DNA from: Eledone cirrhosa
Lineage: Eukaryota
NCBI GenBank assembly: GCA_964016885.1
Contig: OZ024765.1
Coordinates: forward strand, 23,312,001-23,376,000
Direction of reading: 5' to 3'
Length of the DNA: 64,000 nucleotides
Shown here: one piece after another, positions 12,520 to 62,469 of the stretch
Layout: each line of letters begins with the position of its first letter
Numbering within the stretch: position 1 is the first letter of the stretch
Notes under the pieces: generated by a model
Databases searched by the model: none
The model's input: only the letters and a program-made list of their open reading frames with translations
What the model was told of the DNA's origin: nothing
Translations under genes and position numbers: made by a program

Positions 12520-13289
12520 AATAATTTTATCTCCTAATATATATTATATTCCTAAAAAATATATCTTCTATATTTCCCTCAACTGTGATTTCAGTTAATA
12601 GTCTTCAAATGATGATAAATAGAGGTGATGTATCTGAGATTGAAAATAATAATTTATCCCAATGTGATCTGGTATTCTGAAATAAGAGAGAAACAGTATG
12701 AGATAATACAGAATACTTAAGAAGCAGAGATAGATTTAACAGTGGAAATTTTATGTTTCTATGGTGGTAAAATGTAGATATCAACTTTCCTGTCCAGAGT
12801 AATTCTCTCCGATGCAAACAGTGGTATTCCAGCATGCTCTATAAATGTTATCCTTCTATCTCTAGAGAAGTCTGCTCTATGGCAGTTTAGTGAAAAATTC
12901 ATTCTGATAGGACTTTCTAACATAGCTATTATCTCCTCTCCTGGTGACATGTCAACACCAGTTTAACATCCATCTTTTTATTAGTAGGAGTCAATTGTTC
13001 CTCTATATCTTTTTCTTACTTCTTTTCTATCTTTCGCTGGGAGAAATCGGCCGTGTTTAGACCAGGAGTTACGAGTCTATATGAATCCATACAATATCTG
13101 ATTTCACTTGAAGTTTTATTCAGATCTCAATTGTGTTCAAACGAGAGAGGTGATGGGTTCCATCAGGTTTTAAAATATGCCCGAGAAATATTGTATGTCA
13201 CTTAGAGCACCCCTACGACTCCGCCAGTGTTTCATTTGTTTAGGACTATGTCTGGGTTAGCCAGCCAAGTATCAGTAGAAGGGAAAACA

Positions 13290-22641: not shown

Positions 22642-23832
22642 TTATGATTTCTCTTCTGTATGTATAAGTTTGTGAGTAGTTAGGCTACTTTTCCCAGAGT
22701 ATGATATACCACAGATATCACAGTGATATGGCATGTCTCCTGTATGTATACGTTTGTGTCTAGTTAAGCTACTACTTCCAGAGAATGATTTACCACAGAT
22801 ATCACAATGATATGATTTCTCTCCTGTATGGGTACGTTTGTGTCTAGTTAAGTTGGTACTATCAGAGAATGATTTACCACAGATGTCACAGTGGTATGGT
22901 TTGTCTCCTGTATGGATACGTTTGTGGCCAGTTAAGGTAGTACTAACAGAGAATGATTTACCACAGATATCACAGTGATATGGCTTGTCACCTGCATGTA
23001 TACGTTTGTGTCTAGTTAAGGTACTACTTTGAGAGAATGATTTACTACAGATATCACAGTGGTATGGCTTGTCTCCTGTATGTATACGTTTGTGATCAGT
23101 TAAGTAACTACTTACAGAGAATGATATACCACAGATATCACAGCGATATGGCTTGTCTCCTGTATGTATACGTTTGTGTCTAGTTAAGGGACTACTATCG
23201 GAGAATGATATACCACAGATATCACAGTGGTATGGCTTGTCTCCTGTATGTATACGTTTGTGTCTAGTTAAGTCACTACTTTGAGAGAATGATTTACCAC
23301 AGATATCACAGTGATATTGCTTTTCTTCAGTATGTATATGTTTGTGAGCAGTCAAATTACTACTTCGAGAGAATGATTTACCACAGATTTCACAATGATA
23401 TGGCTTATCTCCTGTATGTATAGGCTTGTGGCTACTTAAGCTGCTACTTACAGAGAATGATATACCACAGATATCACAGCGATATGGCTTGTCACCTGTA
23501 TGTATACGTTTGTGTCTAGTTAAGGTACTACTATCGGAGAATGATATACCACAGATATCACAGTGGCATGGCTTCTCTCCCGTATGTATACGTTTGTGAG
23601 TAGTTAAGGTACCACTTTGAGAAAATGATTTACCACAGATATCACAGTCATATGGCTTGTCTCCTGTATGGGTACGTATGTGCTTAATTAAGGTACTACT
23701 TAAAGAGAATGATTTGCCACAGATATCACAGTGATATGGCTTCTCTTCTCTAGCCTTTGTCACCTCACCAGTAATACTAAACATTTTCGATTGTGTTTCA
23801 CATTTAATCTTTTCACTCAATTTATTTTCCAT
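22642..23832 (-). CDS. C2H2 zinc-finger protein B, 396 aa, 13 tandem fingers
   Basis: Open ORF; the N-terminus [19 protein letters not shown] is shared with gene A. Candidate acceptors at 24165 and 23938. Confidence 0.93.
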   Translation of the reverse strand: MENKLSEKIKCETQSKMFSITGEVTKAREEKPYHCDICGKSFSLSSTLIKHIRTHTGDKPYDCDICGKSFSQSGTLTTHKRIHTGEKPCHCDICGISFSDSSTLTRHKRIHTGDKPYRCDICGISFSVSSSLSSHKPIHTGDKPYHCEICGKSFSRSSNLTAHKHIHTEEKQYHCDICGKSFSQSSDLTRHKRIHTGDKPYHCDICGISFSDSSPLTRHKRIHTGDKPYRCDICGISFSVSSYLTDHKRIHTGDKPYHCDICSKSFSQSSTLTRHKRIHAGDKPYHCDICGKSFSVSTTLTGHKRIHTGDKPYHCDICGKSFSDSTNLTRHKRTHTGEKSYHCDICGKSFSGSSSLTRHKRIHTGDMPYHCDICGISYSGKSSLTTHKLIHTEEKS

Positions 23833-25116
23833 AATGATTTCTTCTTCAACAAATGTTTTACTTGTAATATTTTTTATATTATATTCCTAAAAAATATATC
23901 TTCTATATTTCCCTCAACTGTAATTTCAGTTAATATCTGAAGATAATACAAAGTTAGGTTTCATCTAAGTTTAGTTAAAATACAAAACCATCTCATAGTG
24001 AAGAAATAAACTCAGTTTTGAGGAAATATTTCACAGTAATACGATGAGAGATTTATATAAACAATGTTATATAATTTCTGCTTAGAATGTTTTAAAATGA
24101 TGATAAATAGAGGTGATGTATCCAAGATTGAAAATATTAATTTATCCCAATGTCATCTGATATTCTGAAATAAGAAAGAAACAGTATGAGATAATACAGA
24201 ATACTTTAGAAGCAGAGATAGATTTAACAGTGGAAATCTTATATTTCTATATTGGTAAACTGTAGATATCAACATTCTGTCCAGAGAAATTCTCTCCAAT
24301 GTAAGCAGTGGTATTCCAGCATGCTCTATAAATCATATCCTTCTATCACTTCAGAGGTCTGCTCTATGGCAGTTTAGCAAAAAATTCATTCTTATAGGAC
24401 TTATAAGAGAGAAACAGTATGAGATAATAAACCAGTCCAACACTGTAAACATGGTTCATGTCAGGAAGGGAATCCAGCTGCAAAATACTCGACCAAATTT
24501 ACAGACCTCACCTGAGCAAGGTGTGACACATGACCAACCCTGGCCAGACTTGCCTCCTGGCGTGGATGACCCATCTAACCCATGCAAGAATGGAAAAATG
24601 GACATTAAATAGTGATGACACAGACATATATATATATATATATATATATCCCACCCACACTGGTCATGTAAAAGACACAGCAAAAAGCACCCAGCCCACA
24701 CTGTAAAGTGGACATGTAGGTGTCTTGGGAAATGCACCCAGTCCACACTGTCAATGGGGTTGGGGTTAGGAAGGGCATCCTGCTATAGAGAGCTAGCCAG
24801 AAACACCCCCATATGATTGAGACACGGTCACCTGACACAACTTGCCTCTAAATGGGACCTGTTTAACCCATGCTAGCGTGAAATATGGACATTAATTGAT
24901 GATGATATATAATAAAATGTTGCAGTTTGCTTGAAGCATTCTATATAAAATATAATGTTGAAAGAGATAGAAGGCTAAACAATGCAAAATGGACTGTAAA
25001 ATGAGGTAAGGATTAGTAAAAGTTACCTGGTAATCTTTGTTTTTTTTATTTTTTTATTGCTGTTCTTTTATTTGTACAATATTGTTTGACCTAAAAGTCC
25101 CTTCTTCAGGGTTTAA

Positions 25117-33344: not shown

Positions 33345-36300
33345 CTAGCTGACGTACCCAGCTTCGCCCGGGTAAACAGATGATAAGAGAAGACAGGTAA
33401 AAGAGAAAATGACTGTATTGGATGTTTGTCTGGTTACAGTGTGAGGCGAGTCCGTGTTGTCTGTGTGATACAAAAAAACAGTAAAAGAAATCTTCCAGAT
33501 ATATCAGATTCTTCGTTGTGCGGTTTGTGCATAGTATATGAACAATTCTAGGTGCTTCCACCTAGAATAGTGACCTATAGGAGATGGTTCCTCTTCTGCC
33601 TGACTGGAAAACGTGTATCATTGCATAGACGTGGTTGTTCCACGTTTCTCAAAAGGATGATGGAAGTTCCAATCTTTTATATTATATGTAGATATAGATA
33701 TAGATAATTAATAAAAAAGATGTCCGTCAATATAAAAAAGGTCCCTATTTACTTGAAATGGTTTATACAAATGCCAAATTAATATGGATATGGATAACAT
33801 GCTTATCTATAAGTGGTCAGCTATAATAATAAAACAACAAATTATATGACACAAAAATTTATTCAGTAATTTCCAGGCTCTTAGCCACTGAGTAATACAC
33901 AGTCAATATTGCCGAGAGTTCAACTCGGAGAGGTGTCCCCTGGTTGGAACTCAAAATGGCGGATCCTTCTACTTCGAAAATAGAATCGTTTTTCAATATT
34001 ACTCTAGCCCTGGCCGGCCATAGGCACCAAACTTTTTGCCAGACTCAGCATATGATGAGGTTTTATTACCACTGCAATCAGAAGCGATAAATTTGAAGGC
34101 AATTTCTACCAATACTTGTTGGTTTTTATTGCTCATTATCGACAATAAATGACATTGAACATAAATGATAACTCTGCCAAAGCTCACAATACAAATGAAA
34201 GGAAACCAATGTCCGAATCATATACGTCGCTTATTGATAGCATTAAAGATATGCATACATCAGCTCAAAGCTTCATTATAGACAATATTTAGGTTTGTTC
34301 CTCTGTTAGTGGTATCAATTGCAAATTTTATACCATCAGGATCGCACACTCGAGATGCAGCAACATACAGTTGCCCATGGCTGAATGCTGGATCATTCAA
34401 GTAGACATCGACTCGCTTGAAAGTCTGTCCCTGTGCCTTGTTGACAGTCATGGAGAAGGCCAAATTGACGGGAAACTGTCTCCTTTGCCAAATAAATGGC
34501 AGCAGATCTTCACTTGGTCTCAGCATGATCCTCGGAATGAGAACCGATTCCTCTCTGCCTGGGAGTTTAGCTTCTAAAACTCTTCCGTTAATCAATCTCT
34601 CAACAATCAATCTGGTACCATTGCAAAGACCCATTTTATGATTGATATTTCTAAGCAATATAATCGGCAAACCCTTTTTCAACCTCAAAATATGTGGGGG
34701 GAAATCCGGGTATTTGAAGTGAATTCAGATACTCAGTCGGAACATCCATACTGTTCTGCTGATTAGGCTCCATTGCATCCGCACTGACGGTCAACCATTC
34801 CTCTCCAGGAAACATTCCGGCTACTGGTGAATTTATTTCATCGACCGTTGCATTCGTATGAGTTAGAATAACACGTTCCGATATCCAGGAGATATTCTGC
34901 CAAAAAGCATTCAAATTAGGGAACACCCAGTCAATCAATGCTTGGCGGTCCAGTGGCATGACCAAATGGTCTGGGATTCATACAGTCTGATTATCACCAA
35001 CGTGTGGCAATTCATCGTTTCCCAACTGCATCAACCATCGGCCGTATGTCTCAGCCTCTTCGTTTTGCCCGAACATAGGAAGTCGCATATTATCGTGTAA
35101 TCGCAAAACTCTGAAATGGCGCCACAACGGGGACTTTTTCAGACATGCATTGACAATTTACGCTCTGTGAGCATTCCTAACAATTGGTAGCACCTGTCTG
35201 AAATCTCCACCAACAACGATAGTCTTACCACTGAATGGCAGGTCACTACCGCAGATATCTCTCAAAGTTCTGTCCAATGCCTCCAGCAAATATCTGTGTG
35301 CCATTGGAGCCTCGTCCCAAATAATCAGAGACGTATTGCGTATAAGGCCCACGAGTTCACTTTGTCCTGTAATATTACAGACACTCAACTCATCTGGAGC
35401 CAATGGAGCCTTGAAGCATGAGTGGAAGGTCCTTCCACCACTCAGCAAAGTGGCAGCGATGCCCTGGTGGGCACAGGGAGAACAATCTTCCTCTGAGCTC
35501 TGACTGCCGATAACATAGTGTTGAAACAGAATGTCTTTCCGGTGCCTCCTGGAACATCTATGAAAGCACAAAGTTGCTCATTAGTGAAAATCGAGTGGAG
35601 AACGCCATCGACCAATTCTCTCTGAGATTGGGTCAACATTGGCATACGTTCATCCACAATACGTTGCTGTTCCAGTGGATCAAACTGGAATAGTTCCCTC
35701 CGATCGAGTGGCAACCGTCTAAGCTGCAATCTCATGTTCAATGCTAAGACACGTTGCCGCATTTCTTCATCAGGAATTGGCAAATTGAAATCTGTTAAAC
35801 ATTTGAAATGAACTTCAAGCAGTTGCTCAATATTGAGCAAAACAATAGCCTTCAGCAAATTTTCATCATAGACCTGAAGATGATGCCTAAAATCATCAGC
35901 TATAATTCCCCAATGGCGTTCGAATAACTCTCTTGGATCGGCAGGATTGCAGAATCCTAGAATCGTGACAAATAACTGCCATATTCGAGCTGGCATCTGT
36001 GTTGTTCCTGCAGCTTCCATGGCGTTATTCCATTCAGCGTCATCCTGAAGGAGTCCCAGATGCTGACACACAGCCTGGTATCTTTTATATTCCACGCCAT
36101 TGATTGTTTTCAAATCAGCGAAGCTCTGTTTACCTCTCGAAAAATCACTATGCAACAGAATTCGGAGATAAAACAAATCACCAGATGCTGGATGGACATT
36201 ACAAACCCGTCCAATAGTCATGAATCTCAACTTTTGTTTTCTATCATTCCATTTCTTTCCCTTCTTATCCCACGTATAGTGCGAAGGGAAATCGCAGTAG

Positions 36301-39188
36301 AGTTGCTTTTGATCCGGGTTCAAAGCATGTTCCCTATTATGCTTGAACCACTCAGTCAATTCCGTCTTAGGAGGTGGTGCGTTAGCAATTCTTTCGATAC
36401 CTCTTCTAGTGTCCTTAAAACAGACCATTTGCCTATTCTCTAAGTGAACCGTCAGTTTCTGAACGCTGGGTTTGCGTTCATTGAGATCAAAATCGAACAA
36501 TCTCCAGCAAGCTTCGCTAGATCCAATCGAGCGAACATCCTGGAACCTGCCAACTTCATCTCCTTGGTTCGCTTCCTCATTCCTGACATTCATCATTGCC
36601 CCATCATGACCTTTGTAAACATACTTGAATAGATATTTGCAAGCTTTCACTGAGCTACAAATTTCCACATTAATATGACAACGATATTTCATAATCAAAT
36701 ATGGATTGTATGGCACAACCCATTGATTTGTAAGCTGTCGACCGTTTACATTTTCGACCAAACCGCCATCGGCAGGCGACCGTCTTCTGTATGAGGGATG
36801 AGCATCCCCATCATTCCAGGAAGTGTTCGTGACAAAAGATTTCGGAAAGTGCTTACTGCATTGGCCATTTTTTATGCAAGGCGCTTTCCGATTTGCCACT
36901 CCGCATTGGTTGTGCACCATTGACTTTGCCACCAAGTTGCATAGTGCCTCATTCTCCGGCAGTTCAGCACACACAATGCTGTCGACATCCTCAGCACATC
37001 ACAATTTGCAATGTCTATGTAAAATGATCAGCAAATGTGCATGTGGCAATCCTCTTTTTTGGAATTCAATTACGTATGTAAAAGCAACTATACCTCCAAA
37101 GATTCCCTCTTTTTCCACATCATCCATTATCTTTTTCAGATATCCTTTGAATACTCTTGCCACAATATCAGGACGGTCCTTTGGCTGTTGTCCTGGCAAA
37201 AGTGCATCCTTAATATCAGTCCATTCAGGATTGCATGTAACCGTTATAAACAAATCTGGCTTTCCAAACTTTCTGACAATAGCCATTGCATCCTGATAGC
37301 GAATGTTCATATATCTCGGGCCGCCGATGAACGACGATGGCAAAATGATGCGTCGACCAATTTGCTTGTAATTGGCATCATCGGCTGTTATCGCATCCTG
37401 TATATTATTATACAATTCAGCTCTATGTTGCTGATGTGTAGCTATATAATTTAGCCTTTGATTTTCGATCTTTGCGTATGCCATACAACAGTATTCCTGG
37501 AACAATCTGCTGGCTTGAAATAGCGCATTTCTCTATTGATTCCTCTCGTTCAAATGGAACGCGTAAAAGTCGCGAATCGAATTATTGTGTCTATTGCCAC
37601 CTCCCTGTTGATGCTGATTCTCATGATCATCTAAATGAACAGACATGTTCCATCCATTTTCACCTTTTGGGAATAAAAGAACATAATGCAATGGATGGTA
37701 TGTCCTATTTGACTCATTGATAGTTTTGAGACCACCATCTCTGCGATTGAGGGCGATATCTCTCGATCCAGGCTTATCGTCCATCAACACAGCAACTTCA
37801 CGAAATCCTTCAGGGGCATTATATCGCCGTTCGTGTTGATTCCTTGGCACTGCGTCAGCCTTAATCACCAATGTTTGTTGCTGAACATTTTGCAGTTCAG
37901 CCACCAACATGAAATCCATAACATAAGGATTACACTGTCTAAGCCATGAATGCAAATCACGGATCAAATCACTTAACCTTTGCCGTTCAAGTTCAGTTAT
38001 ATTTCCCGGCAACTTCATCCAACCGATCCTGATATCCTCCTCCGATTCACTATAATCTGGATCGTTAACGTAAATTTGAGCAAATCGATGTCTCTCTCCT
38101 GGGGTAACTTCTAAATTACCGATACAATGATACAAACGGCATTGAATGACTACATTCGGTTGCCATGCTCCACTCTCAAACATCTAACTCTCTGCGATGC
38201 TAAAGCTAATAAATTGTTAATTTGCCGCGAATATTTGCGCAGTAATCTACCTCGGTCTCATTGATCACCCCACATACTTAGTATTTTAAACTCCGGTGAC
38301 TCCCCATCATCCGGCATTCGCAAGGGTTCTAGTTGAACTGCTCCTTTGTGACACCACATTGTGTTCCACGTCTTTTCGTGCCATCAAAGCAATGCTCCAC
38401 AATATGGAGACTCTGCTCGTCCACCAATCTGACAATGACACGGTTGCCATGATCCATTTTTAATATCATTCGTTCGCCTTCTAGCCTCTTTACTGGAATG
38501 AGGAGCACTTTGCGACACATTCCCTGAACTTCTGTATTGCGCTGGCGCTGTTCAGCCAGCTCCTCTTCATCCATCGGAGCACGCCATTGCTGCTGAATTC
38601 TGGCCACCTGTTGATGATGCTCAGCCAGTTCGTTTTTCAACCATCGCAGCACTCCGTCGCCGCTGTAGTTCACTGTTTGATAAAGTCGAATTCCTTTTGT
38701 TATCAGTATTCATTTGGAGCAATTGTAAAAAAAATGACACAATAATAAATATAAAAGATGTCCGTCAATGTAAAGAAAGGTCCCTATTTACTCCCTTCAC
38801 AACTCTGTGTATGACAGACAGGCACACAGACAGATAAACTGCGCGGCGATTGTGGAACGTCACACACATATACGCATGGAAATGCGCACACGCACACAAA
38901 CTTACACACGCACACACTCACACATGTTGATAGTTTTTACTTTCTGTGGAACACTGCACACACGCACACAGACATAAACATACGCGCACATACATACACA
39001 CGCATACATGTTAATAGTTATTGAACACAGCGTTCACACTCTCCCCTCTCACTCTCTCATTGGCATTATGCATATTAATTTCAGTTTGGCGTCGTTGGGG
39101 TGGGCGGAGTCGTTTGAAACCTATGAACCAATGATAATCGAGAATTGTGACACACAGAATACTGACGTTCTTCAAATTAATATATAGA
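33345..39188 (-). mobile_element. Helitron with decayed Rep/Helicase
   Basis: 5' A|TC at 39188; 3' hairpin and CTAG at 33345; RepHel coding fragments inside. Confidence 0.9.
34260..38330 (-). pseudogene. Helitron RepHel (HUH Rep + PIF1-type helicase), frameshifted
   Basis: LPSSFIGGPRYM, GKPDLFITVTCNPEW, EFQKRGLPHAH, KYLFKYVYKG, GGTGKTF, IIWDEAPM, GDFRQVLP, TVNKAQGQT and HGQLYVAASRV, spread over six ORF pieces. Confidence 0.95.
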
Positions 39189-43204: not shown

Positions 43205-43420
43205 TCCTGTGTCAGTGTTGAACAAAAAGGTGACGTGGTTGCCTAAACACTGTACGGCGTAATTCGGGCTGTTTGTTTGTTTACAAACAAACAAACCGAA
43301 CATTATAATAAATGTTCGGTAAACCGATACGTGCATATATATATGTGTGCATGTATATATATACATACTACTGTACGTCTGTATACATATATGTATGTAC
43401 GTATACATACATACTTACAC

Positions 43421-43455
<35 letters not shown>

Positions 43456-43583
43456 ATTATATAGAACAATAAAATATGGCACCAGATGTTCAACCCAAGA
43501 CCTTATGATTGAGAACAGCACACCTGTAACCTCTAAGCTATATATCTTCACACAGACTTTCTGATAAAGACAGAAGTACCCAC

Positions 43584-43721
43584 CTGACTGACAGTTGTCT
43601 CCCCTGAAACCAGCTGCACATCCAACACTAGAACACACCCCAGATTTAATGTCGCAATGATTGTTGTCAGCACAGTGGCACAAATACTGACAGTTCAAGC
43701 CAAAATAACCCTTTTTACATT
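43584..43721 (-). CDS. Internal exon of an EGF-like repeat protein (MEGF10/SREC-type repeat)
   Basis: 138 nt, phase 1-1, poly-T tract plus cag acceptor, G|gtgggt donor; CKKGYFGLNCQYLCHCADNNHCDIKSGVCSSVGCAAGFRGDNCQS. Confidence 0.88.
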
Positions 43722-43852
43722 CTGAAAAAAAAAAAAAAAAAGAAAATAGAATTATATACACAACATATATATAAAATTATACACAATAACACATATATAC
43801 AATTATACACAGCTATAACATACATATACACAATTATACATAACTATAATGC

Positions 43853-46045: not shown

Positions 46046-47990
46046 AGACATTCAATGTAGAAGAGAACTGGGAGTTCCTAAAAAATAACTTACTAGAGGC
46101 GACGGATGAGGTCTGTGGCTGGAGTAAGACCTCAAGCAGGAGGAGAGTGACTTGGTGGTGGAACAATAAGGTAGATGAGGCAGTTAAGGCCAAGAGACAG
46201 GCATGGAAAGAATGGAAGAACGGGGGGAGCAGGGTACATTACATAGAGACCAAGAGGGAAGCTAGGCGACAAGTATACTTAGCTAGGAGGGAAGCAAAGG
46301 ATAGAAAATTCAAGCATGTTTTGCAACGTAAAGACCAGAAACAGGAGGTGTTCAAGATTGCGAGGCAGTGTGTCAGAGAGAATTGCGATGTCATTGGAGA
46401 GAAGTGTATCCGGAATGATAAAGGTGAGCTTGCCCTCACAAGTGCTGAGAAGAAAGATGCATGGAAGAGTCATTATGATAGATTACTAAATGAGGAGAAT
46501 GCATGAGAAGAAGAGTTCCACGTGCTGTAATCTGGTGGGCTCTTAGAAAACTAGGAGTAGATGAATGGCTTGTGAAAGCTGTACAAGCCATGTATAGGGG
46601 AGCAGTCAGCAAAGTTAGGATTAGCAATGAGTATAGCGAGGAATTTAGCGTACAGGTTGGGGTCCACCAGGGCTCTGTTCTTAGCCCCCTCCTGTTCATC
46701 ATAGTCCTGCAGGCAATAACGGAGGAGTTTAAGACCGGATGCCCATGGGAACTCCTGTATGCTGATGACCTCGCACTTATAGCTGAATCTATGGTAGAGC
46801 TAGAGAAGAAATTCCAAACTTGGAAGCAGGGACTAGAAAGAAAGGGTCTCAAAGTCAACATGACAAAGACTAAGGTTCTTGTAAGTAGACGAGAAAACAG
46901 AACCCAGATCCCCTCAGGGAAATGGCCTTGCTCAGTATGTAGGAAAGGTGTAGGTAGGAACTCCATTCTCTGCCCCAAATGCAAACAATGGGTACACAAG
47001 AGATGTAGCGGGATCTCAGGAAGCTTAATTAAGAATGTAGGCTTCACATGCAGCAGCTGTGCTGGGACAGCAAGCAGCAAAAAGCCACAGGACATAAGTA
47101 CCACAAATCTCTGGGAGGGCTCTGTAGAAAGAGTAGTCAGCTTCTGCTACCTAGGTGACCGAATTAGCAGCAGAGGTGGGTGTTCAGAAAGTACAATAAC
47201 TAGGGTAAGAACGGGATGGAAGAAGCTAAGGGAACTACTACCACTGCTAGCTGCAAAAGGCTTCTCCCTCAAAATGAAAGGCAGACTGTATGATGCGTGT
47301 ATCCGAACAGCGATGTTGCATGGTAGTGAGACCTGGAGGCTGAAGGTGGAAGACTTACATAGATTAGAGAGAAACGAAGTCTGCATGCTCCGATGGATGT
47401 GTAACAGTAATATACAAAGCATAAATGAATTGAGAGAGAGACTGAGCATAAGAGGAATCAAATGCTGTGTGCAGGAGAGGCGGTTGCGTTGGTATGGACA
47501 TGTGATGCGTATGAAGGATGACAGCTGCATAAAAAGGTGCAGAGCACTAGAAGTCGATGGAAACTGCGGAGTGAGGTGATAAAAGCCGACCTTACCCAAT
47601 TACACCTCTCAAAGGTGATGACACACGACCGTGCCCTCTGGCGTCACGCAGTAATACAGTGTACCCGATTTCCCATGGGTACAAGCTGAAGCATATAGAC
47701 AATATGCCCCCACAGCCCCCACTGCAAGGTGGTCGTGGAGGTGCCACGGCAAAAAAGCACCCAGCCCACACTGTAAAGTGGACGTGTAGGCGCCACGAAA
47801 AATCACCCAGCACTCACTGTAAATGAGGTTGGTGTTAGGAAGGGCATCCAGCTGTAGAAATCAAACCAAATCAGTTCCTGTATGAGCAAGGCATAGTCAG
47901 CCGACCAGACACTGCCCACAACAGGACAACCCGTCTAACCCATGCTAGCCTGGAAGAACGGACGTAAAACGGTGATGATGATGATGATGA
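46046..47990 (+). mobile_element. RTEX with 5' truncation and internal deletion
   Basis: ORFs 46147-46506 and 46503-47579 jump from LLNEEN to RVPR; (GAT)n tail. Confidence 0.92.
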
Positions 47991-50900
47991 TATCATCATC
48001 ATCATCTTACGTCCGCTTTTCCCTGCTTGCAAGGGTGGGACGGGTCTTATTCAGCACAGCATCTCTCCACTCGTCACGGTCCCTAGTCATCTCCACCATG
48101 AGCTTCAATGATCTGAGGTCTGTTCTCACCACCTCCGCCCGTGTTTTTCGTGGTCTACCTCTACCACGTCTTCCTTCAACTGCCAATTCCTGGCACTTCT
48201 TCACCCATCGGTCATCCTCCATGCGCATCACATGTCCATACCACCTCAGTCTCCTCTCCCGTACACTACATTTTATCCCTCTCAGACACAGTTTCTCTCA
48301 CAACACATTTATGCTAGGTCGTTCACGCACATTTACACTGCACATCCAACGGAGCATTGCTTGCCTCATTTCTCTCCAGCCGTTGCATATCCTCTGCAGT
48401 TGCTGCCCATGTCTCACTACCATGCAGCATCGCGCTCCTCACACAGGCATCATACAACCGGCCTTTCGTATGCAGGGAGAAACCCTTCTTCGTCAACAGA
48501 GGAAGCAGCTCCCTAAACTTCTTCCAACCCGTCCTTATTCTAGATACTATGGCCTCGCAACACCCTCCTCCCATGCTAATCTGATCTCCTAGGTACCGGA
48601 AGCTATCCAGCACTTCTATAGCGCCCTCATACATTTGAAAAATGTGTCTATCAATGTGACTTCTACTGTCTAATTTCCCTGTACATCTACTGCATACATA
48701 TTTCTCCCTACCTGTTAGTTTGCCTGCTATCCCGCTACATCTCTTGTGTACCCAGGATCTGCATTGTGTGCATTTTATAGAATTTATGCCAGTTCCTTTT
48801 CTGCATATCGAACATGGCCATTTCCCTGACGGAAGCAGGGTTTTGTCCTCTTTTCTACTCATCAACACTTTTGCCTTAGCTAGATTCACTCTCAGTCCTC
48901 TTGCTTCCAATTGATGTTTCAATAGCCAGAATTTATTCTATAGCTCCTCTACTGATTCTGCTATAAGAACCAGATCGTCAGCATAGAGAAGTTCCCATGG
49001 ACAGCCAGTCTTAAACTCCTCTGTTATGGCTTGGAGGACTATAATGAACAAGAGCGGGCTGAGGACCGAACCCTGATGTACTCCTACTTGTATCTGGAAT
49101 TCCTCACTAAACTCCATTCCTACCCTGACTTTACTGAGAGTACCTCTGTACAAAGTTTGCTCTGTCCTCACAAGCCATTCCTCAACACTTAGCTTCCTTA
49201 GGGACCACCAGTTGACAGATCGGGGTACCCTATCAAAGGACTTCTCTAGGTCAACAAAGGCTAAGTATAGTGGCTTATTCTTTCCTAAGAACCTCTCTTG
49301 CAATTGTCTCACCAAGAAGAGGGCATCTGTTGTACTCTTCCCAGGCACAAAACCAAACTGCATCTCATCTAGTTTGACCCTTTCTCTAATTAGTTGTGCT
49401 AAAATCCTTTCTGCCACTTTCATAACCTGATCTATCAGTTTTATACCCCTATAATTGCTCCTCTCCAAAGCATCCCCTTTACCTTTGTAGCAATTTATCA
49501 GAATACTGCTGCACCAGTCTTTGGGTATGACACCACCATATATAGCCTGATTGATGATGCGTGCAACCAGTTTAGTGCCTACGTCCCCTGATGCCTTCAG
49601 CATCTCAGCAACTATTCCCGATGGTCCGGCAGCCTTACCATTTTTCATTTCCCTAATCGCCTCTTGGACCCTATATTCGTCAATCTCAATAGCTGGTCCC
49701 TCTGTCGGATCTACCAAGGGTAATTTCTCTCTCTCCCATTCGTTCTCCACATTCATCAGTCTCTCATAATGACATTTCCAGGCCTCCTTTTTCTGATCAT
49801 TCGTGACACTAAGTACACCGGCATCATCCCGGACACATTTATCTCCAACAACATCCTGACTTGCATTGACACACTGCCTTGCAATGTGGAACACCGCACG
49901 CCTCTGATCTTCCCATCGCAGAACATTGGCAAACCTCCTACTCTCTGCCTCCCTGCGTGCTAAGTACACCTGACGTCTAGCTTCTCTCTTAGTAGCTGTA
50001 TATTCTTCCCTACTCCCACCCTTTTTCCAAGCCTTCCATGCTAGTCTTTTGTCTCTAATAGCCTTATCTACTGTGCTGTTCCACCACCAGGTCACTCTCT
50101 GTCTGGTTGGAGCTCTGCTCCAGCCACAAGTTTCATCAGTAGCCTGCAGCAAGTTGTCACGTAAGAAATTCCAGTTATTATCTATGTCATACATCTCTAA
50201 ATCGTCTTCTTTTTCGTCATATACATCTTGAAGGGCTTTCCTAAATTTGTATTTTTGTGAAAGGTCTTTTAGCTTTCATACCTTTCTTCTCCACACCTTC
50301 CTATATGTCTCATTCCATCTCTTGCTTACTGAGATATCACTAACAACTAACCTATGTTGTGGGGTACATTCTTCCCCATGGTATGCCTTGGTACTCTATC
50401 TGCCTGTCCCACTGCCTAACTAGTAAGAAGTCAATCTGGCTTATGTGCTCACCAGATTTGTAGGTTATTAGGTGATTGGCAGGTTTCTGGAAGTTTGTAT
50501 TGCAAATAGTCAATGTACCTGCATCGCAAAATTCGAGAAGTCCGACTCCTTCTTCATTTCTTGAACCGTGACCGTGCCCACCATGTACCCCAGTGTAACC
50601 ATCCTGGAGCTGTCCAACATGACCATTGATGTCTCCGTCATCTGTCATTGCGGTTGTTTGCAAAAGTTGCTCATAAAAGCAGTCTTTCTCTTCTTTGTCT
50701 AGGCCTGCTTGGGGAGCATAGGCCGAGATGATTGTCAGTCGTCTCCTACCTACAACTAATCTAAGCTTAATTATTCGATTACTAACTCGAACTACCTCTA
50801 TTGTCTCAATGATCCATTTCTCAGCCAGGAAAATGCCTACTCCCCTTAACCCATCATCCTTACCTACCCAGAATAGCTTATAGCTAAGACGTTTGCCTAC

Positions 50901-51240
50901 GACTAGTCTCGCAGAGGCACCTCTCCATCTCACCTCTTGCACGCAGCACACATCCACCTGCCTTCTCTCCAGCATCTCCGCTATTTTAGCAGATCTACCT
51001 CTGAGAGTGCCAACATTAAGTGTTGCAACTCTGAGATGCGACGTCTTCATATTTTGTTGTTGTTCCTATTTGTTGCTGTGCTGATAAGCGTTTTGGCATT
51101 GATACACTGGTTGGATGCCCTTCCTAACACCAGCGTCATTTTACAGCATGGACTGGGTGCTTTTATTTGTGTCACCAGCACTTAGAGAGGATGTCTTACT
51201 AGACTCAAGGGCCCTCTCTACCCCTCCATTTTACAGCATG
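47991..51240 (-). mobile_element. Near-full-length RTEX subfamily copy (APE + RT)
   Basis: ORFs 50352-51050 (VATLNVG, CVQEVRW, SAYAPQ), 48938-50194 (RT, LLYADD), 48323-48922 and 48007-48231. Tail-to-tail with the previous copy. Confidence 0.93.
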
Positions 51241-51428: not shown

Positions 51429-51464
<36 letters not shown>

Positions 51465-51634
51465 TATAGATAGGTAAATATACACGGGTCTGTATGATTG
51501 TGTATAGAAGATTATATTAATAAGAGGAATTCCAACTTTGTCTGATTTACTCGTTTTATTTACAATCCTTTAAAATATATATAATGGTATTATAATGAAA
51601 TAGTATGATAGAATATTAAATTCTAAGTGTTAAT

Positions 51635-51673
51635 TGAACAAGTACTTTCATGCTTTCGCAATCTTCAGGTTCA
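51635..51673 (-). ncRNA. Minimal type I hammerhead ribozyme (left palindrome arm)
   Basis: Reverse complement of 51746-51784. Confidence 0.82.
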
Positions 51674-51745
51674 TGATATGTGGTGACAGTCGAGTTTGCA
51701 ATTTTCAACTGAGAAAATTGCAAACTCGACTGTCACCACATATCA

Positions 51746-51784
51746 TGAACCTGAAGATTGCGAAAGCATGAAAGTACTTGTTCA
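51746..51784 (+). ncRNA. Minimal type I hammerhead ribozyme (right palindrome arm)
   Basis: tgaac CTGAAGA t tgc gaaa gca t GAAA gtac TT gttca. Confidence 0.82.
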
Positions 51785-51939
51785 ATTAACACTTAGAATT
51801 TAATATTCTATCATACTATTTCATTATAATACCATTATATATATTTTAAAGGATTGTAAATAAAACGAGTATATCAGACAAAGTTGGAATTCCTCTTATT
51901 AATATATATATATATATATACATGTATATATATATGTAT

Positions 51940-52066
<127 letters not shown>

Positions 52067-52085
52067 CATGTATATATATATATAT

Positions 52086-52214
<129 letters not shown>

Positions 52215-52340
52215 AAAGTTTTATTTAAAATGTTGGGTTACAACGAGTAAATATTTTATAACTGATATAAAAGCACTCAACAGGTTTTGGAGTATTTTAC
52301 GATATTAAACAAATGGAAATTACATTTATAAAACCATATT

Positions 52341-52406
52341 TATTTCATTATATATATTTCAGGGATATCATATTAAAAATATGGTATGCCCTCTTCAGAT
52401 AAAATA
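52341..52406 (-). ncRNA. Type I hammerhead ribozyme in the left arm
   Basis: Reverse complement of 57250-57315. Confidence 0.8.
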
Positions 52407-53260
52407 CAATATATAGACAGCTTTATAAATAAATTTGACATACCTTAGAGTTCACAACTTCCATTTAAAAAGTTGTTACGGTAGTGAAAATGTTATGGAC
52501 GGTTAGAAAGAAAGACGGAGAGAAAAAAGGAAAAAGAAAAAGGAGAAAAGAAAAAGAAAGAGCAGAAGGTGAAGAAGATGAAGAAATGTATGTAAAGAGA
52601 AAATCACCAAATGAGATATCTATGAGAGAAGGGGGTACTGTAATTATTCATTTGTTTATTTCTTTATTTAGTGTTAAGGATACGGGGAGAAATAAAAAAT
52701 AAAAACAAAATAAAGAGAAGTAGATCGAGTAATATCTATTATACGAGGTGGGAGAGATAGGGGAGGGGTGATATACAGGAGATAGAGTTAAAACAGCCGA
52801 TATAAGAGTAGAAGGGAGGAGGAGAGGAGATATACTGAGAAACAAAAATGATAGTTTTAAAATATTATGTTTCATCAGTCTATCAATTCCTATGAATTAT
52901 AATGTAAACATCAATATTCATGAATGAGACACATATCAATAATGTGTGAAAAAATAGTGACTATATGTTTAGTTTAAAAATTCATAGGTTTATAATCAAA
53001 ATCTGAGATAAAACCTCAAAAAAATACTGGAATACATAGGTATATATGTATTTTCATGAAAAAAGAGAAAAGAGAAAGAGAAAGAGAAAGAGAAAGTTAT
53101 CTCAAAATGACATTATAGACACATGTGAGTTTACATGATCAGCTCTGTAAATTTTTATTTCACATGGAACTCTTCATTGCGTTAAAAAGATTTTACCATA
53201 CACATAAGTGTACATACATATATATATACATAAAATATACATTATTAATAATAATAATAT

Positions 53261-53463
53261 GAAGGGCGGTGGATTGGCACTATCAGTAGAGGGTCGGACG
53301 CCATGCCTTCCAGCATAGTTACGTCCCTTTACGATCTGAGTTCAAATCCCGCCGAGGTTGACTTTGCCTTTCATCCTTACGGGGTCGATAAAATAAAGTA
53401 CCAGTAATACACTGGGTAATTGCTGGCCTTGTGCCTAAAGTAGAAACAATTAATAATAATAAT
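53261..53463 (+). mobile_element. tRNA-derived SINE inside the left arm (mirror copy at 56200-56400)
   Basis: Box B gagttcaaatcc, then gttgactttgcctttcatcc and an (AAT)n tail. Confidence 0.8.
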
Positions 53464-53931
53464 ATTCTTGCCCTTTCTTACATGATTATCGTACAAGCAT
53501 AGAATAGAACAGATATCAATATATTAAAAACGCCAAGAATATTTTCCTCCCCAGAATATCTAGGGCCGTAATAAAAACACAGTGGGCCCAGCATATCAAT
53601 CAATCCCTCCAATTTATTTGACAATACTGCCAAGTTTATTAGAAGCAATCAGAGTCAAAAGCAAACAAAACCAAAATTATTCACCAAACTTAATTAGCAG
53701 AAATCATTCAAAAAAACTTTAGGATGCTCGGTTGTTCTACAGATGCTCTTATATTTATTCTAGAAGTTTATCTAGCATAAAAATTTTATTCTATAGATTT
53801 GGATCATCACCGTTTTAAGGTAGTTTAATTACATTATTAATTATATATTCATGAAGAAGGTTTAAAGAATTGAAGGAATCGAAAGAAATCGCCAAGTTTT
53901 CTAAAATAATTAAAAGTCTTAAGTAAATATA

Positions 53932-55842
53932 TTACATTTTAAACTTATATTTATATTTAAAAGTTGAGTTCAATCTATGTCTGCAGCAACTGAATAAATT
54001 GGTCCGTAAATTAAGGGAATTTTTAGATTTTAGTATAAAGAATATCTCCTCTGCGCAGAGGTCACATGTCTCAGAGGAGGAATTAAAAGGAATCCCTCTT
54101 GAGACTATATTCCAAACCGTCGAATATCCAACGTTATCATGTTTAAGTTGCCAGAGCAAGCCTGATAGTGATGTTGAAGATTTTTTGTTTGGATCTGTGA
54201 AAGAATTCTTGTGATTATTATAGCGAAGTTTAAATTCTGTCGAGGTGGAACCAACATAATTAAAAGAATTTAAGTCAGTTTTAACATTACAGTTGTATAT
54301 TATATTTTTAACTAAGCAATTGTTATTTAACGGGCATTTAGATCTATCTCTACAGTAACAGTTGTTTACTTGAATATTGTTTATGCTATTATCGGTATTT
54401 TGGCTAGGTTTTAGATTTCTATTATTTATTCTATTAATATTTTGTGCTAAATTTTTGGTGGACGAGTAGGTTAATTTTATAGTATGTCTATTGAAAATTG
54501 AGTGATACTTATGTGTTCTAGGGAATCGTTTGTCAAGAGCATTAAAAAATAGTTTAGTGATGTGGGTTTTAATGTTTAGTGAGAAAGGGGGGGCAAACCA
54601 AATTATGTTTCTAGTTCTATTCCTTTTCTGGTTTTGGGAATTATTGTAATTCTTTCTATTATAGTTGTTAAAGTTGTTACCGTAATTAAAATTGTTGTTA
54701 TTTTGGTTAGTTTGTCTATTATTATCGATGTACATAATTTTATCACTATATCCTGCTCTAGCTAACGCTTCATTGTAATAGTGGGCTTTTTGGTCGAAAA
54801 TATTTTTATTAGATGAGATTCTAGAGATACGTTTTTGAACAGAGTTTACTATAGTATTTTTAACAGATCTGGGGTGGTTGGAGTTAAAATTGACATAATT
54901 CAAGTTTTCATTTAACTTGTGAAATGGATAGTGAAGACATGTGTTGAGATTTAATGTTACATCTAGGAAATTGACTATTCTATGGTTATTCTCAATTTCT
55001 ATTTTTAGATTAAGGTAATTAAAAAATTGTATAATTTGTTTTCTTTTTCTATTTAGTTCAGAGTTATTATTTTCAATAAGTAAAAGCATGTCATCCCGAT
55101 ATAATCCTCCGGTAGCACCGGGTAATTTCCTATGCAGCGAATTAATTATAAATAGGCCCACAAGGTCTGTTACCTGAGCCGAGTCAGATGATCCCATAGT
55201 AATGTCAAAATTGCTATCCCTATCTGCCCTAGTCCATAGTTGGTTATTAAATTCTATCAATGTTTTTCTTGCCGATAGTATAATGTGCATTTCATTGCTA
55301 GTTAGGTCTGTATGTTTGAATGCATAATTTAGTGCCTTATTTAGTAGGTTAGGGGTAATAGATGAATAGTAGTTAGCAATATCTAGTTGAATAAATTTAT
55401 TATTATTGTTATATTTAATTTCTTTAAACCACTCAATAACCTCTCCAGTTCCCTTCCACAAGCTTAAGTTAGGTGAACAATTCAAGTTCTTAATTTGCTG
55501 TATCACCCTGTCTAGAATGTTTTTGCTAAGTTTACCCAGGTCAGATTTTGATGGTGCGATCAATCTGACTGGCAAGTCGTTTTCAAAATTTCTTTTGTGA
55601 TCTTTCATATTGATCTTGGGTTTCCTGGGCAAGAAAGGTTGTGTTTTGTTCTCAATTTCCAACTCATGCATTATACAAGATGCCTCAACGTTCATTTTCT
55701 CAAGTTCAGCCTTATCTGCTACCTTGTACTTTTTCCTTAGTTCTTTCAGTATGAGGCCATTATACATGTCTTTATCCAGTCCATAGAGGTTGTTGGTTTT
55801 GTCCGATTTCACCAAGATCTTCTCTGTTCTCTCTAAGCTCAC
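53932..55842 (-). CDS. PLE polyprotein: RT + C-terminal GIY-YIG endonuclease (Naiad-like); the frame stays open upstream to about 56140
   Basis: KSDKT, PSKSDLGK, QLDIANYYSSI, ITMGSSDSA, GLYRDD, NFLDVT, WFAPPFS, CYCRDRSKCPL, IIY..YVG..FKLRYNNH and CDLC..E..LNLR..CRH. The clade assignment is from memory of these motifs. Confidence 0.9.
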   Translation of the reverse strand: MSLERTEKILVKSDKTNNLYGLDKDMYNGLILKELRKKYKVADKAELEKMNVEASCIMHELEIENKTQPFLPRKPKINMKDHKRNFENDLPVRLIAPSKSDLGKLSKNILDRVIQQIKNLNCSPNLSLWKGTGEVIEWFKEIKYNNNNKFIQLDIANYYSSITPNLLNKALNYAFKHTDLTSNEMHIILSARKTLIEFNNQLWTRADRDSNFDITMGSSDSAQVTDLVGLFIINSLHRKLPGATGGLYRDDMLLLIENNNSELNRKRKQIIQFFNYLNLKIEIENNHRIVNFLDVTLNLNTCLHYPFHKLNENLNYVNFNSNHPRSVKNTIVNSVQKRISRISSNKNIFDQKAHYYNEALARAGYSDKIMYIDNNRQTNQNNNNFNYGNNFNNYNRKNYNNSQNQKRNRTRNIIWFAPPFSLNIKTHITKLFFNALDKRFPRTHKYHSIFNRHTIKLTYSSTKNLAQNINRINNRNLKPSQNTDNSINNIQVNNCYCRDRSKCPLNNNCLVKNIIYNCNVKTDLNSFNYVGSTSTEFKLRYNNHKNSFTDPNKKSSTSLSGLLWQLKHDNVGYSTVWNIVSRGIPFNSSSETCDLCAEEIFFILKSKNSLNLRTNLFSCCRHRLNSTFKYKYKFKM

Positions 55843-57249
55843 AATATTATCCTTAATGCTTTTCAGATATTCTTGGCCTTTGAAGTTTCTCTTGAATTTG
55901 ACTCCTTGTATGATAGAGATTATATCGTTTTCAAAATCAATTAAAAGTTTGTTGGGGGGTGGATTTTTTTTAGATTTGAAAACTTTATCTAAGTCTGAGA
56001 CATTTTCATTTGTATTAGATTTATCAAAGTGGAATGCACGCCACCTGATTCTCCTTATAAAAGAGTCTGATTTATCTATTAATTGTTTAATAAAGTCTTT
56101 GTTTCTTGGCGTTTTTAATATTTTAATATATTGATATCTGTTCTATTCTATGCTTGTACGATAATCATGTAAGAAAGGGCAAGAATATTAATATTATATT
56201 ATTATTATTAATTGTTTCTACTTTAGGCACAAGGCCAGCAATTACCCAGTGTATTACTGGTACTTTATTTTATCGACCCTGTAAGGATGAAAGGCAAAGT
56301 CAACCTCGGCGGGATTTGAACTCAGATCGTAAAGGGACGTAACTATGCTGGAAGGCATGGCGTCCGACCCTCTACTGATAGTGCCAATCCACCGCCCTTC
56401 ATATTATTATTATTAATAATGTATATTTTATGTATATATATATGTATGTACACTTATGTGTATGGTAAAATCTTTTTAACGCAATGAAGAGATCCATGTG
56501 AAATAAAAATTTACAGAGCTGATCATGTAAACTCACATGTGTCTATAATGTCAGTTTGAGATAACCTTCTCTTTTTCTTTCTCTTTTCTCTTTTTTCATG
56601 AAAATACATATATACCTATGTATTCCAGTATTTTTTTTGAGGTTTTATCTCAGATTTTGATTATAAACCTATGAATTTTTAAACTAAACATATAGTCACT
56701 ATTTTTTCACACATTATTGATATGTGTCTCATTCATGAATATTGATGTTTACATTATAATTCATAGGAATTGATAGACTGATGAAACATAATATTTTAAA
56801 ACTATCATTTTTGTTTCTAAGTATATCTCCTCTCCTCCTCCCTTCTACTCTTATATCGGCTGTTTTAACTCTATCTCCTGTATATCACCCCTCCCCTATC
56901 TCTCCCACCTCGTATAATAGATATTACTCGATCTACTTCTCTTTATTTTGTTTTTATATTTTATTTCTCCCCGTATCCTTAACACTAAATAAAGAAATAA
57001 ACAAATGAATAATTACAGTACCCCCTTCTCTCATAGATATCTCATTTGGTGATTTTCTCTTTACATACATTTCTTCATCTTCTTCACCTTCTGCTCTTTC
57101 TTTTTCTTTTCTCCTTTTTCTTTTTCCTTTTTTCTCTCCGTCTTTCTTTCTAACCGTCCATAACATTTTCACTACCGTAACAACTTTTTAAATGGAAGTT
57201 GTGAACTCTAAGGTATGTCAAATTTATTTATAAAGCTGTCTATATATTG

Positions 57250-57315
57250 TATTTTATCTGAAGAGGGCATACCATATTTTTAATATGATATCCCTGAAAT
57301 ATATATAATGAAATA
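57250..57315 (+). ncRNA. Type I hammerhead ribozyme in the right arm
   Basis: tattttat CTGAAGA gggcataccatatt ttt aatatgatatccct GAAA tatata TA atgaaata. Confidence 0.8.
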
Positions 57316-57356
57316 AATATGGTTTTATAAATGTAATTTCCATTTGTTTAATATCG

Positions 57357-57397
<41 letters not shown>

Positions 57398-57398
57398 G

Positions 57399-57447
<49 letters not shown>

Positions 57448-57738
57448 ATATATATATATATACATGTATATATATATATATATATACATGTATGTATATA
57501 TATATATATATATACATGTATGTATATATATATATGTATATATATATATGTATGTATGTATATATATATATATATACACATGTATGTATATATATATATA
57601 TATATACACACATGTATGTATGTATAGATATATATGTATACATGTATCTATATATATATACTACCAAATCAACTTTTTAAATGGAAGTTGAAGTGTAAGG
57701 TATGTCAAATCTATCTATTTATAAGACGGTTTATATTG

Positions 57739-57804
57739 TATTTTGTCTGATGAAGGCATACCATATTTTTAATATGATATCCCTGAAATATATATAATGA
57801 AATA
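57739..57804 (+). ncRNA. Type I hammerhead ribozyme in a diverged tandem copy (about 57670-57846) of the arm end
   Basis: tattttgt CTGATGA aggcataccatatt ttt aatatgatatccct GAAA tatata TA atgaaata; the changes preserve pairing. Confidence 0.8.
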
Positions 57805-57857
57805 GATATGGTTTTATAAATATAGTTTCCATTTATTTAATATCGTATATATACATG

Positions 57858-60401: not shown

Positions 60402-60432
60402 AAAATATATATATATATATACACATACATAT

Positions 60433-60493
<61 letters not shown>

Positions 60494-60506
60494 CATATAC
60501 ACACAC

Positions 60507-60581
<75 letters not shown>

Positions 60582-60586
60582 CATAT

Positions 60587-60640
<54 letters not shown>

Positions 60641-60675
60641 TAGGAGCCAGCATAAAATTAACCCTTAAGGAACAT

Positions 60676-61974
60676 ATGTTCAAATTTAATGGTAAAACAT
60701 ATGCCCAAGAGGAAGGAGCAGCCATTGGTGTTAGCATTGCAGGCAACGTAGCTAACTTATTCATGGTATGGTGGGACAGTAGACTTAAACTTAAACTTAA
60801 AGAACAATTAGAAGACAGCTTAACCCTGATAATGAACTCCCGCTACGTAGATGATATAAACATCGTAGTTAAGACACCCCCACTAGAGAACAGTCAGGAA
60901 CTAGAGAAAAACACAATGGAAAGCATCCAGCAAATAGCAAACTCCATCCACCAGAGCATTAGAGTTACTATAGACTACCCAAGTAGACACCCCAACCATC
61001 GATTACCTGTACTAGACACAGAGCTCTGGTTAGATACCATTAACAACAAAAAACAAATCCTCCATTCCCATTATGCCAAACCCATGACTTCCAAACATCT
61101 GATCCACCGAAACTCGGCCATTTCGGACCATAACAAAATCAACATACTGATTGCGGATTTGGTACGGGTGATGAGAAATGTGTCCCGCATGTGCAACCCC
61201 GAAGAACTAGAGAGACACATACAACACTTCATCCACCGTATGCAGTTCTCTGGCTACAATCAGAGAGATAGAATCAGAGTGTATAGAGGAGCCAGAACCA
61301 AATGGGAAAAAATGGTAAATAATGACATAAATGGGACCTGCCCCTTGTATAGGAGCAAATTTTGGAATAGAATAGAAAGAACTAGGAACAAGGCCAATAG
61401 AATAAACTCATGGTATGATAGCAATAAATACCAGAGTGTAATGTTCATCAATACAACCCCTAGAGGCGAACTAGCCTACAAATTTAGAAGGGCCCTAAAT
61501 AAACATAAACTCAATATTAAGATAGTAGAAAGACCAGGTACCTCCGTAAAAACACTTATTAGCAAGACATACCCGTTCCAAAGACCCTCATGTATAGATA
61601 AGAAATGTATAACCTGTAAAATAAGCCCCCATATTAACTGTAAAACTAGAAATGTAGTGTATAGCATAAGATGTACTGAAGGACAATGTAGAAACAAAAA
61701 TATAGTGTACATAGGTGAGACAGCTCGTAGTATAGGGGAACGGATAAATGAACACTGGCGAGACCTTCAAGATAATAAAGAATCATCTGTACTCTACCAA
61801 CATGCTAAGATAGAACACAAGGATAAATTAGAGAACATAGAAATAAAAATAGAATCTACACACAGAAAAGATGCAATGTTTAGGCAAATTACAGAGGTAG
61901 TAAGCATAAAAGAATTACAACCAAAATTAAATAGAAAATATGAGTGGAACAGCAACATCACAACTTACAATTAA
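60676..61974 (+). CDS. PLE RT C-terminal half + GIY-YIG endonuclease, 432 aa
   Basis: [30 protein letters not shown] knuckle, [26 protein letters not shown]...H and LNRK. Confidence 0.9.
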
Positions 61975-62178
61975 GGACAAAATGAAAACACACACACACA
62001 TAGAACAAACAACCAACCAACAACATGTAAATAAATAAACAAATAGATAAATGAACACAAACACACACAGACACCCGGATGTGGCGCATGCGCAAACTGA
62101 GCACACAACACACACACAGAAACAAAATGGCGTAGGACAGAAGAAAGGAAAGGCACAGAAACAAAGAAAGGAATCCCC

Positions 62179-62223
62179 AGTCACTGAAGAGGTCACAGAG
62201 TGTGTGACGAAAGGACTATGACT
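62179..62223 (+). ncRNA. Minimal type I hammerhead ribozyme 3' of the PLE ORF
   Basis: agtca CTGAAGA g gtcaca gagtg tgtgac GAAA ggac TA tgact. Confidence 0.8.
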
Positions 62224-62469
62224 ATATATAAACAACTATCTGGTTGAGGAACCAACCAACCAACCAGAAACTTAGAAGTTTGTAGATTTGTAAATTTATA
62301 AATTTATGAATATATAATAAATTGAAGTGAAAGCAACTGGTGCGTGTGTTTCTTATTGGCAACATGACCCTCCCAAAGTATAACAATATATATATATAAA
62401 TATATATATAAATATATATATATATACATATATATGCGCAGAGGTTATATTTAATTTATTGGGATTCAA

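Follow-up and report, generated by a model that had tools for sequence, protein, structure and literature searches.

The reverse transcriptases (RTs) of Penelope-like elements (PLEs) are placed as the sister group of telomerase RTs in the text available from PMC8557442. According to the available portions of PMC8557442 and PMC3846280, the standard layout of these elements is an inverted, 5'-truncated pLTR with a one-sided tail, and both sources leave the mechanism of the inversion open. In Schistosoma, dual hammerheads lie 100–700 bp apart on opposite strands, as described in the accessible part of PMC4209133. For a PLE protein studied in vitro, the accessible part of PMC11167929 describes cutting and extension of both strands, a predicted dimer, and two neighbouring internal start sites between which the tail lies; the start site was the same for both strands, and initiation was not homology-based. 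Titles and abstracts, the range searched here, contained no report of twin priming for PLEs or of genomic ends at the ribozyme cut. Against this background the locus described below is itself ordinary, since pLTR inversions that have a tail on one side and hammerheads on opposite strands have already been published. Its family bears on two questions, namely the origin of inverted one-tailed PLE insertions and the activity of weak hammerheads in vivo, and the family counts hint at information beyond the locus on how PLE insertions form and whether the ribozyme acts in vivo.

The window, which is the whole analyzed stretch of 64,000 nucleotides of the Eledone cirrhosa genome, contains an inverted repeat with arms of 194 nt each (51513–51706 and 51713–51906), a single mismatch (51547/51872), and the loop AACTGA. 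The earlier note had described this geometry of 194-bp arms, one mismatch, a 6-nt loop and no ORF, which was confirmed and is far beyond chance; the longest stretch without a stop codon in the six frames of the hairpin was 45 codons. The coordinates given there, 51513–51906, are correct for the inverted repeat, but they missed a one-sided tail of about 46 nt that reaches to about 51463. The left arm extends approximately 46–50 nt past 51512 (51463–51512, minus strand) as the tail of the element, so that the unit 51463–51906 is asymmetric. In element numbering, where the A of ACAGTT is +1, the long tailed arm (51463–51711, minus strand) runs from +2 to about +250 from the likely transcription start, and its tail covers about +201 to +246/250, between the two end points of inserted copies. 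The short untailed arm (51713–51906, plus strand) covers +7 to +200. The apex (51707–51712) takes five of its six letters, AACTG, from positions +2 to +6 of the left arm itself, and the final A is a junction letter. The mismatch is due to a rare derived T allele in the right arm, at 51872, which had 23 exact genome matches vs. 6,979 for the other allele. Both outer ends of the insert abut (TA)n tracts: a (TA)n tract at 51434–51462 and a (TA)n-rich tract at 51907–52211, likely the two halves of the target. The left and right flanks differ from each other, and no target-site duplication was callable at the hairpin, because the target is a microsatellite.

The arm belongs to the pLTR of a young PLE of Neptune/Nematis type. 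In the parent copy, L074 (C1:21871400–21881300), two full-length elements that look intact form a palindrome of 8.7 kb, whose halves are 2 substitutions apart over about 4.3 kb, with the exception of the apex and the tail. The long arm of the hairpin differs from the 3' pLTR of L074 at only 3 of 250 positions, and the insert is therefore young. In both halves of L074, +73 to +250 precedes ORF1 and the full arm follows ORF2, which is the arrangement of a pLTR. Both elements begin at the predicted ribozyme cut (+73/74), and one of the two outer ends is tailed and the other untailed. In each element, ORF1 (448 aa from Met) overlaps ORF2 (775 aa between stops), which lies in the −1 frame, at a TTTTTTA heptamer. 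Domain searches of ORF2 returned RVT_1 at 299–439 (E 2.9e-6, below the curated cut-off) and GIY-YIG at 687–773 (E 3.3e-6, above it); the protein thus combines an RT with a C-terminal GIY-YIG endonuclease, as do EN+ PLEs. The linker of ORF2 carries a CX4CxxC motif (CNDNRCGTC) and the endonuclease carries CCHH residues, with CPNC between the LIY and YVG motifs and two His further on. In the available text of PMC8557442, a CX2-5CxxC linker and a CCHH endonuclease motif are assigned to Neptune and Nematis, and by motif only the parent family is of this type. The linkage of the arm to PLE ORFs, suggested earlier as a check, was thus found in L074, with its RT and GIY-YIG domains and the same pLTR, and the hairpin is almost certainly a by-product of a PLE. 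An ORF that lies 2 kb from the hairpin (53932–56142) was rejected as the parent, with a best blastp score of 27 bits and no third arm in the window. The overlap of ORF1 and ORF2 (L074 6437–6527) with its TTTTTTA was also kept in the two other independent covering copies (L017/L062 and L126), and downstream of the heptamer in L074 no strong hairpin was found (−5.8 kcal/mol). A frameshift after ORF1 is noted in Fig. 1 of PMC8557442, a source consulted in part.

The family is large. Genome-wide (3.0 Gb), there were 6,979 exact matches to one arm 26-mer, 5,429 exact matches to a hammerhead 35-mer, and at least 1,112 places with this apex pattern; each of the reversed controls gave 0. Thousands of exact matches mean that the arm is not single-copy, which answers the copy number check proposed in the earlier note. 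A preliminary impression that the same A/T mismatch was present in every hairpin (5/5) proved to be an ascertainment artefact, since the DNA search skips common words and had picked the rare T allele.

Other elements lie around the hairpin. An unrelated PLE occupies 52212–57850, with Hydra-clade-like motifs (RWR, DKT, and CxCX5C, as defined in the part of PMC8557442 available) and a 736-aa ORF at 53932–56142 on the minus strand. It is flanked by a 1.2-kb inverted repeat (52298–53529/56121–57358, 98%), both copies of which contain a dispersed SINE-like repeat of about 190 bp, and it has hammerheads with a long stem II at 52398 (minus), 57258 (plus), and 57747 (plus). The Hydra-type family ends within a few hundred bases of the present arm in 4 of 19 other loci (L007, L015, L016, and L019), likely because both families target (TA)n. 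A third PLE-like ORF of 523 aa is located at 60403–62230 (plus), with a hammerhead-like motif at 62184 (plus) and a related motif at 44769 (minus). Pfam returned nothing for the two PLE-like ORFs of the window. The 5' end of an AP-endonuclease/RT LINE at 47900–51220 (minus) is about 250 bp to the left of the hairpin. The minus strand also carries two C2H2 zinc-finger arrays (10999–12543 and 22642–23886) and an EGF-like exon (43303–43776). Fragments at 34260–38183 (minus) presumably represent a Helitron-like Rep/helicase, a label based on sequence motifs.

The ends of the arms were determined in 78 regions, which together contain the first 100 matches listed for the 26-mer on contig C1; since the samples were taken from the starts of the largest contigs and exact seed matches were required, they lean to young copies. 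Among the 115 arms of this sample that reach the 3' end, 68 start at −2 to +12, 22 extend further upstream than −2, and 25 start at +13 to +151. A TATAWAAG motif was present at −31/−30 in 17 of the 20 copies that keep the upstream sequence, across subfamilies; two of the three misses were truncated and one was mutated. No TATA box occurs inside the arms. The TATA box, together with the position where copies end, indicates that +1 is the likely Pol II start, and the arms would accordingly represent complete copies of the RNA 5' end, minus the promoter. A splice acceptor at +5 was rejected as the cause of the shared 5' edge, as many arms include +1 to +4.

At the 3' side, the arms end at either about +200 (untailed, 45 of 115) or about +246 (tailed, 65), and 5 were unclear. 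The junctions in the 78 regions included 44 head-to-head and 0 adjacent tail-to-tail cases. One tailed and one untailed arm were combined in 32 of 33 complete pairs (p 8e-9 against 50%), a count that includes three hand calls, namely L136, scored by its outer ends, and L163 and L180, scored by eye. The same combination was found in 33 of 33 complete pairs of a set chosen by apex, which overlaps partly with the loci of the first sample and to which three loci were added by hand, and in 44 of 47 complete pairs of a third set. A further 18 pairs of the apex-chosen set have one very short arm. The subfamily-diagnostic positions did not differ between partner arms in 16 of 25 true pairs, vs. 6% of unrelated pairs; the remaining 9 differed at 1–4 diagnostic columns, and 2 of the 27 listed pairs had been dropped from this comparison as cross-pairs within L193. 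Because partner arms share subfamily variants, the sequences indicate that both arms of a pair were copied from one template, and the shared variants rule out two unrelated RNAs as the source of the arms. In the hairpin at 51513–51906, both arms span the ribozyme site, and the template was therefore uncut RNA. Among the very short inverted arms, 15 of 18 end at +20 to +37, just before stem I of the hammerhead, which raises the question of a third priming or joining site.

The hairpin consists of head-to-head pLTR copies in a (TA)n tract, and it is fairly probable that they arose in one insertion, with both cut ends priming on the same RNA. From the family identity, the copy number, the start and end points of the arms, the tailed-plus-untailed rule, and the variants shared by partners, all of which were observed, we infer the following series of steps. 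A TATA promoter in the 3' UTR of the element would give rise to an RNA starting at +1, and the GIY-YIG domain would cut both strands of a (TA)n tract. One 3' end would then prime at about +200 and the other at about +246, at AU-rich sites near the RNA 5' end; both cDNAs would extend to the RNA 5' end, the second displacing the first, and their ends would be joined via short microhomology or templated fill. A class of hairpins approximately a tenth as numerous likely stems from RNA that had been cut at the hammerhead, or from an enzyme that stalled there. Templated insertions were present in many apexes of the apex-chosen set. Such insertions are an expected outcome of end joining. The 51 apexes examined fell into 30 orientation-and-class categories. 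For the full-length palindrome L074, priming from both ends would need strand displacement over 4.3 kb. As noted above, the in vitro work found the same start site on both strands, so that the rule of one tailed and one untailed arm is not forced by itself, at least as far as the accessible part of PMC11167929 goes.

The closest competitor of this reading is fold-back, in which a tail-primed cDNA that has reached the RNA 5' end snaps back, serves as its own template up to about +200, and is then joined to the other end of the target. It gives a simple account of arms from the same template and of a one-sided tail, and several apexes, for example that of L074, can be drawn as snap-backs of 1–3 bp. 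Self-priming is also the reading offered in the available text of PMC3846280, there on an antisense template and with the matter left open. A cDNA that copies itself would, however, impose a fixed polarity, with the tailed arm always furthest 5'. This was not observed: although the tailed arm extended further 5' in 9 of the 13 asymmetric pairs of the C1 sample and the untailed arm in 4, the third set (n = 34) gave 15 tailed vs. 19 untailed, many of these pairs differing by a few bases. The differences were not always small, since in the young copies L003 and L131 (97–98% identical to the reference) the untailed arm reached more than 100 nt further 5' than the tailed one, and the long arm was the untailed one in 9 of the 18 pairs with one very short arm. 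The apex showed no fixed polarity either; when the tailed arm was placed on the left, the centre of the commonest apex was T in 5 cases and A in 8. An untailed cDNA cannot supply a tail, and fold-back from it is therefore unable to yield a tailed partner. In a variant of the fold-back reading, endonuclease resolution, which is offered for the tail in the part of PMC8557442 consulted, or later inversions and deletions at the centre blur the polarity; a later inversion or deletion at the palindrome centre could indeed be a source of both the mixed apex polarity and the arm lengths. Since either arm may reach further 5', the apex polarity is mixed, and the PLE protein of PMC11167929 cuts and extends both strands, we lean toward two primers rather than fold-back, and we regard fold-back as rather unlikely. 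The earlier interpretation of the hairpin as a young fold-back product of PLE reverse transcription therefore holds with regard to a young product of PLE reverse transcription, whereas simple fold-back is weakened by the lack of fixed polarity.

Each arm of the hairpin contains an identical hammerhead of 39 nt, at 51635–51673 on the minus strand, with a predicted cut between 51640 and 51639, and at 51746–51784 on the plus strand, with the core at 51751 and a predicted cut between 51779 and 51780. The earlier description of one 39-nt hammerhead per strand, with a GAAA loop on stem II and the palindrome AGUACU as stem III, was matched in the sequence. The core is CUGAAGA/GAAA, stem I has 5 bp, and stem II has 3 bp with the GAAA loop and a U-U pair in place of the G10.1-C11.1 closing pair, which is absent. 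The motif thus has the parts of a minimal type I hammerhead (a CUGANGA...GAAA...UH core, stems I and II, and a palindromic helix III); Rfam gave 0 matches at the gathering score in the window, and the motif call rests on the consensus core. In predicted folds, the monomer reached −5.0 kcal/mol with stem III open, and two copies co-folded at −18.0 kcal/mol. As the two hammerheads lie on opposite strands, one transcript carries only one of them and no dimer is formed in cis.

Apexes downstream of about +56 were searched for and located at 187 places; the first 50 listed were examined, and one duplicate among them was dropped. The furthest 5' end fell within +72 to +78, the stretch that includes the predicted cut U73/G74, in 32 of the remaining 49 (p 3e-16 vs. 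a uniform distribution over 50 positions); the seven positions on either side contributed 2 (+65 to +71) and 3 (+79 to +85). The peak is not sharp, with 12 ends at +76 and 14 at +72 to +74, which counts against cleavage as its cause. Local microhomology alone was rejected as the cause of this pile, since the strongest palindrome was barely used: the 8-bp palindrome at +66 to +73, which is the longest in the region and is destroyed by the cut, was the apex at 4 places genome-wide, vs. 63 places (35 and 28) for two apex forms, matched exactly, that lie immediately 3' of the cut. A form with one T among these apexes was absent from 129 intact arms and is therefore junctional, and a 6-bp palindrome at +96 served as the apex in 1 of 49. 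Scaling (187 × 32/49) gives about 120 cut-site apexes, approximately a tenth of the 1,112 at +1, a rough ratio because the two patterns differ in their anchor. The C1 sample contained only 2–3 cut-site events among the 25 arms starting at +13 to +151, and genome-wide there were 3 solo copies whose G74 directly adjoins (TA)n. This second pile of 5' ends probably reflects ribozyme cleavage of the template RNA, as judged from the positions of the junctions. A stall of the RT at stem I could produce ends at +72 to +78 as well, the same stretch being the 3' strand of stem I, and a hammerhead folded on the template, whether cut or uncut, is more probable still than cleavage. A single inverted arm, in L157, spans +1 to +73 and stops precisely at the predicted cut, as would a copy of the 5' cleavage fragment.

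The mutation rate of hammerhead cores after insertion is 2.0%, vs. 1.7% for the rest of the arm, and no purifying selection on inserted hammerheads was found. The 16 common polymorphic columns all lie outside +39 to +89, which is a modest hint that the source elements may be under some constraint across this segment.

Taken together, the family may be a fossil record of how PLEs insert, in which the two ends of a double-strand cut prime on one RNA, at two fixed sites 46 nt apart, with the cDNAs joined head to head and with about a tenth of the hairpins derived from ribozyme-cut RNA, a combined reading that we put forward tentatively and at somewhat less than even chances. If it is true, head-to-head joining explains both the inversion and the one-sided tail; in addition, the ribozyme-cut class includes the only full-length copies examined and would be genomic evidence for cleavage by a metazoan PLE ribozyme in the germ line.

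A quite different possibility, which we consider improbable, is that the hairpin has a function or propagates itself as a non-coding unit (retrozyme- or MITE-like), or that it supplies dsRNA to Dicer or ADAR. The high copy number would agree with such a unit, as would L002, whose hairpin is nearly identical and has this rare allele in one of its arms; the apexes, however, vary by locus, and the rare allele is in the tailed arm in L002 vs. the untailed arm here, which indicates that hairpins are made anew. No tandem arrays of the retrozyme type were found, and the hammerhead core is not more conserved than the rest of the arm. With respect to dsRNA, the full hairpin RNA is predicted to fold at −311 kcal/mol, and the EGF-like exon 8 kb away on the minus strand means that the locus could be intronic. 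The arms are nevertheless devoid of a TATA box, only read-through from outside would yield the full hairpin RNA, and no editing signature in the form of an A>G excess was detected in 90 arms (14 A>G in 63 A columns; 22 T>C in 51 T columns). The role as a Dicer or ADAR substrate raised in the earlier note is thus possible in principle and unsupported, and the insert, which has no TATA box, is probably an inactive remnant. Perfect palindromes are a known class of artefact and no listed record spans the whole stretch, but a fold-back artefact of sequencing or assembly is very improbable given the unlike flanks, the tail on one arm, the arm-specific allele, the 1,112 sister apexes at one element position, and the apex-type joints also found in contigs of an independent run.

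A comparison with the non-LTR retrozymes described in the available text of bioRxiv 10.64898/2026.07.22.740005 showed that both are non-coding and pLTR-related and carry a type I hammerhead. Retrozymes are defined there by units arrayed in tandem, head to tail, every unit having its hammerhead on one strand, in contrast to the head-to-head pair found here; the window has two inverted arms only, and the sampled loci are singles and head-to-head pairs.

The hammerheads resemble those of metazoan PLEs, which, as far as the accessible part of PMC4209133 describes them, are of type I, are located in the pLTR, and have a tiny palindromic helix III that needs a dimer. Unlike the motifs in that text, stem II here has 3 bp and a U-U pair without the highly conserved G10.1-C11.1, and position 17 is U. 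The hammerheads of PMC4209133 are presented there, in the portion available, without in vivo evidence, whereas in the present family genomic 5' ends accumulate around the site of the predicted cut.

The Anolis Poseidon element (PAc), described from in vitro work in PMC11167929, of which a part was accessible, shares with the present family two adjacent internal RT starts that bound the tail, AT-rich targets, and uncut RNA as the main template. It is of another clade type, the linker Zn-finger being present here. Another difference from PAc, as reported in that part of the paper, is that the start sites of the present family are AU-rich and match (TA)n. The RNA-seq data on PAc given there showed no ends at the ribozyme cut, whereas a minority of copies start there in the present family.

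Among the close matches are the EN+ PLEs as they are described in the available portions of PMC8557442 and PMC3846280. The present family has the same head-to-head inverted pLTR, the junction palindrome, and the tail on one arm only, and likewise a TATA/Inr-like pLTR promoter, (TA)n targets, and an ORF1 set off by a frameshift. The differences from these descriptions are a tail of about 46–50 nt vs. 30–40 and arms that both comprise only the first 200–250 nt of the RNA, with no ORF, at no fewer than 1,112 apexes. A young, intact-looking element with thousands of junctions allows exact predictions, namely a start at +1, priming at +200 and +246, and a cut at U73/G74, and these suit the type of in vitro assay that was built for the Anolis element.
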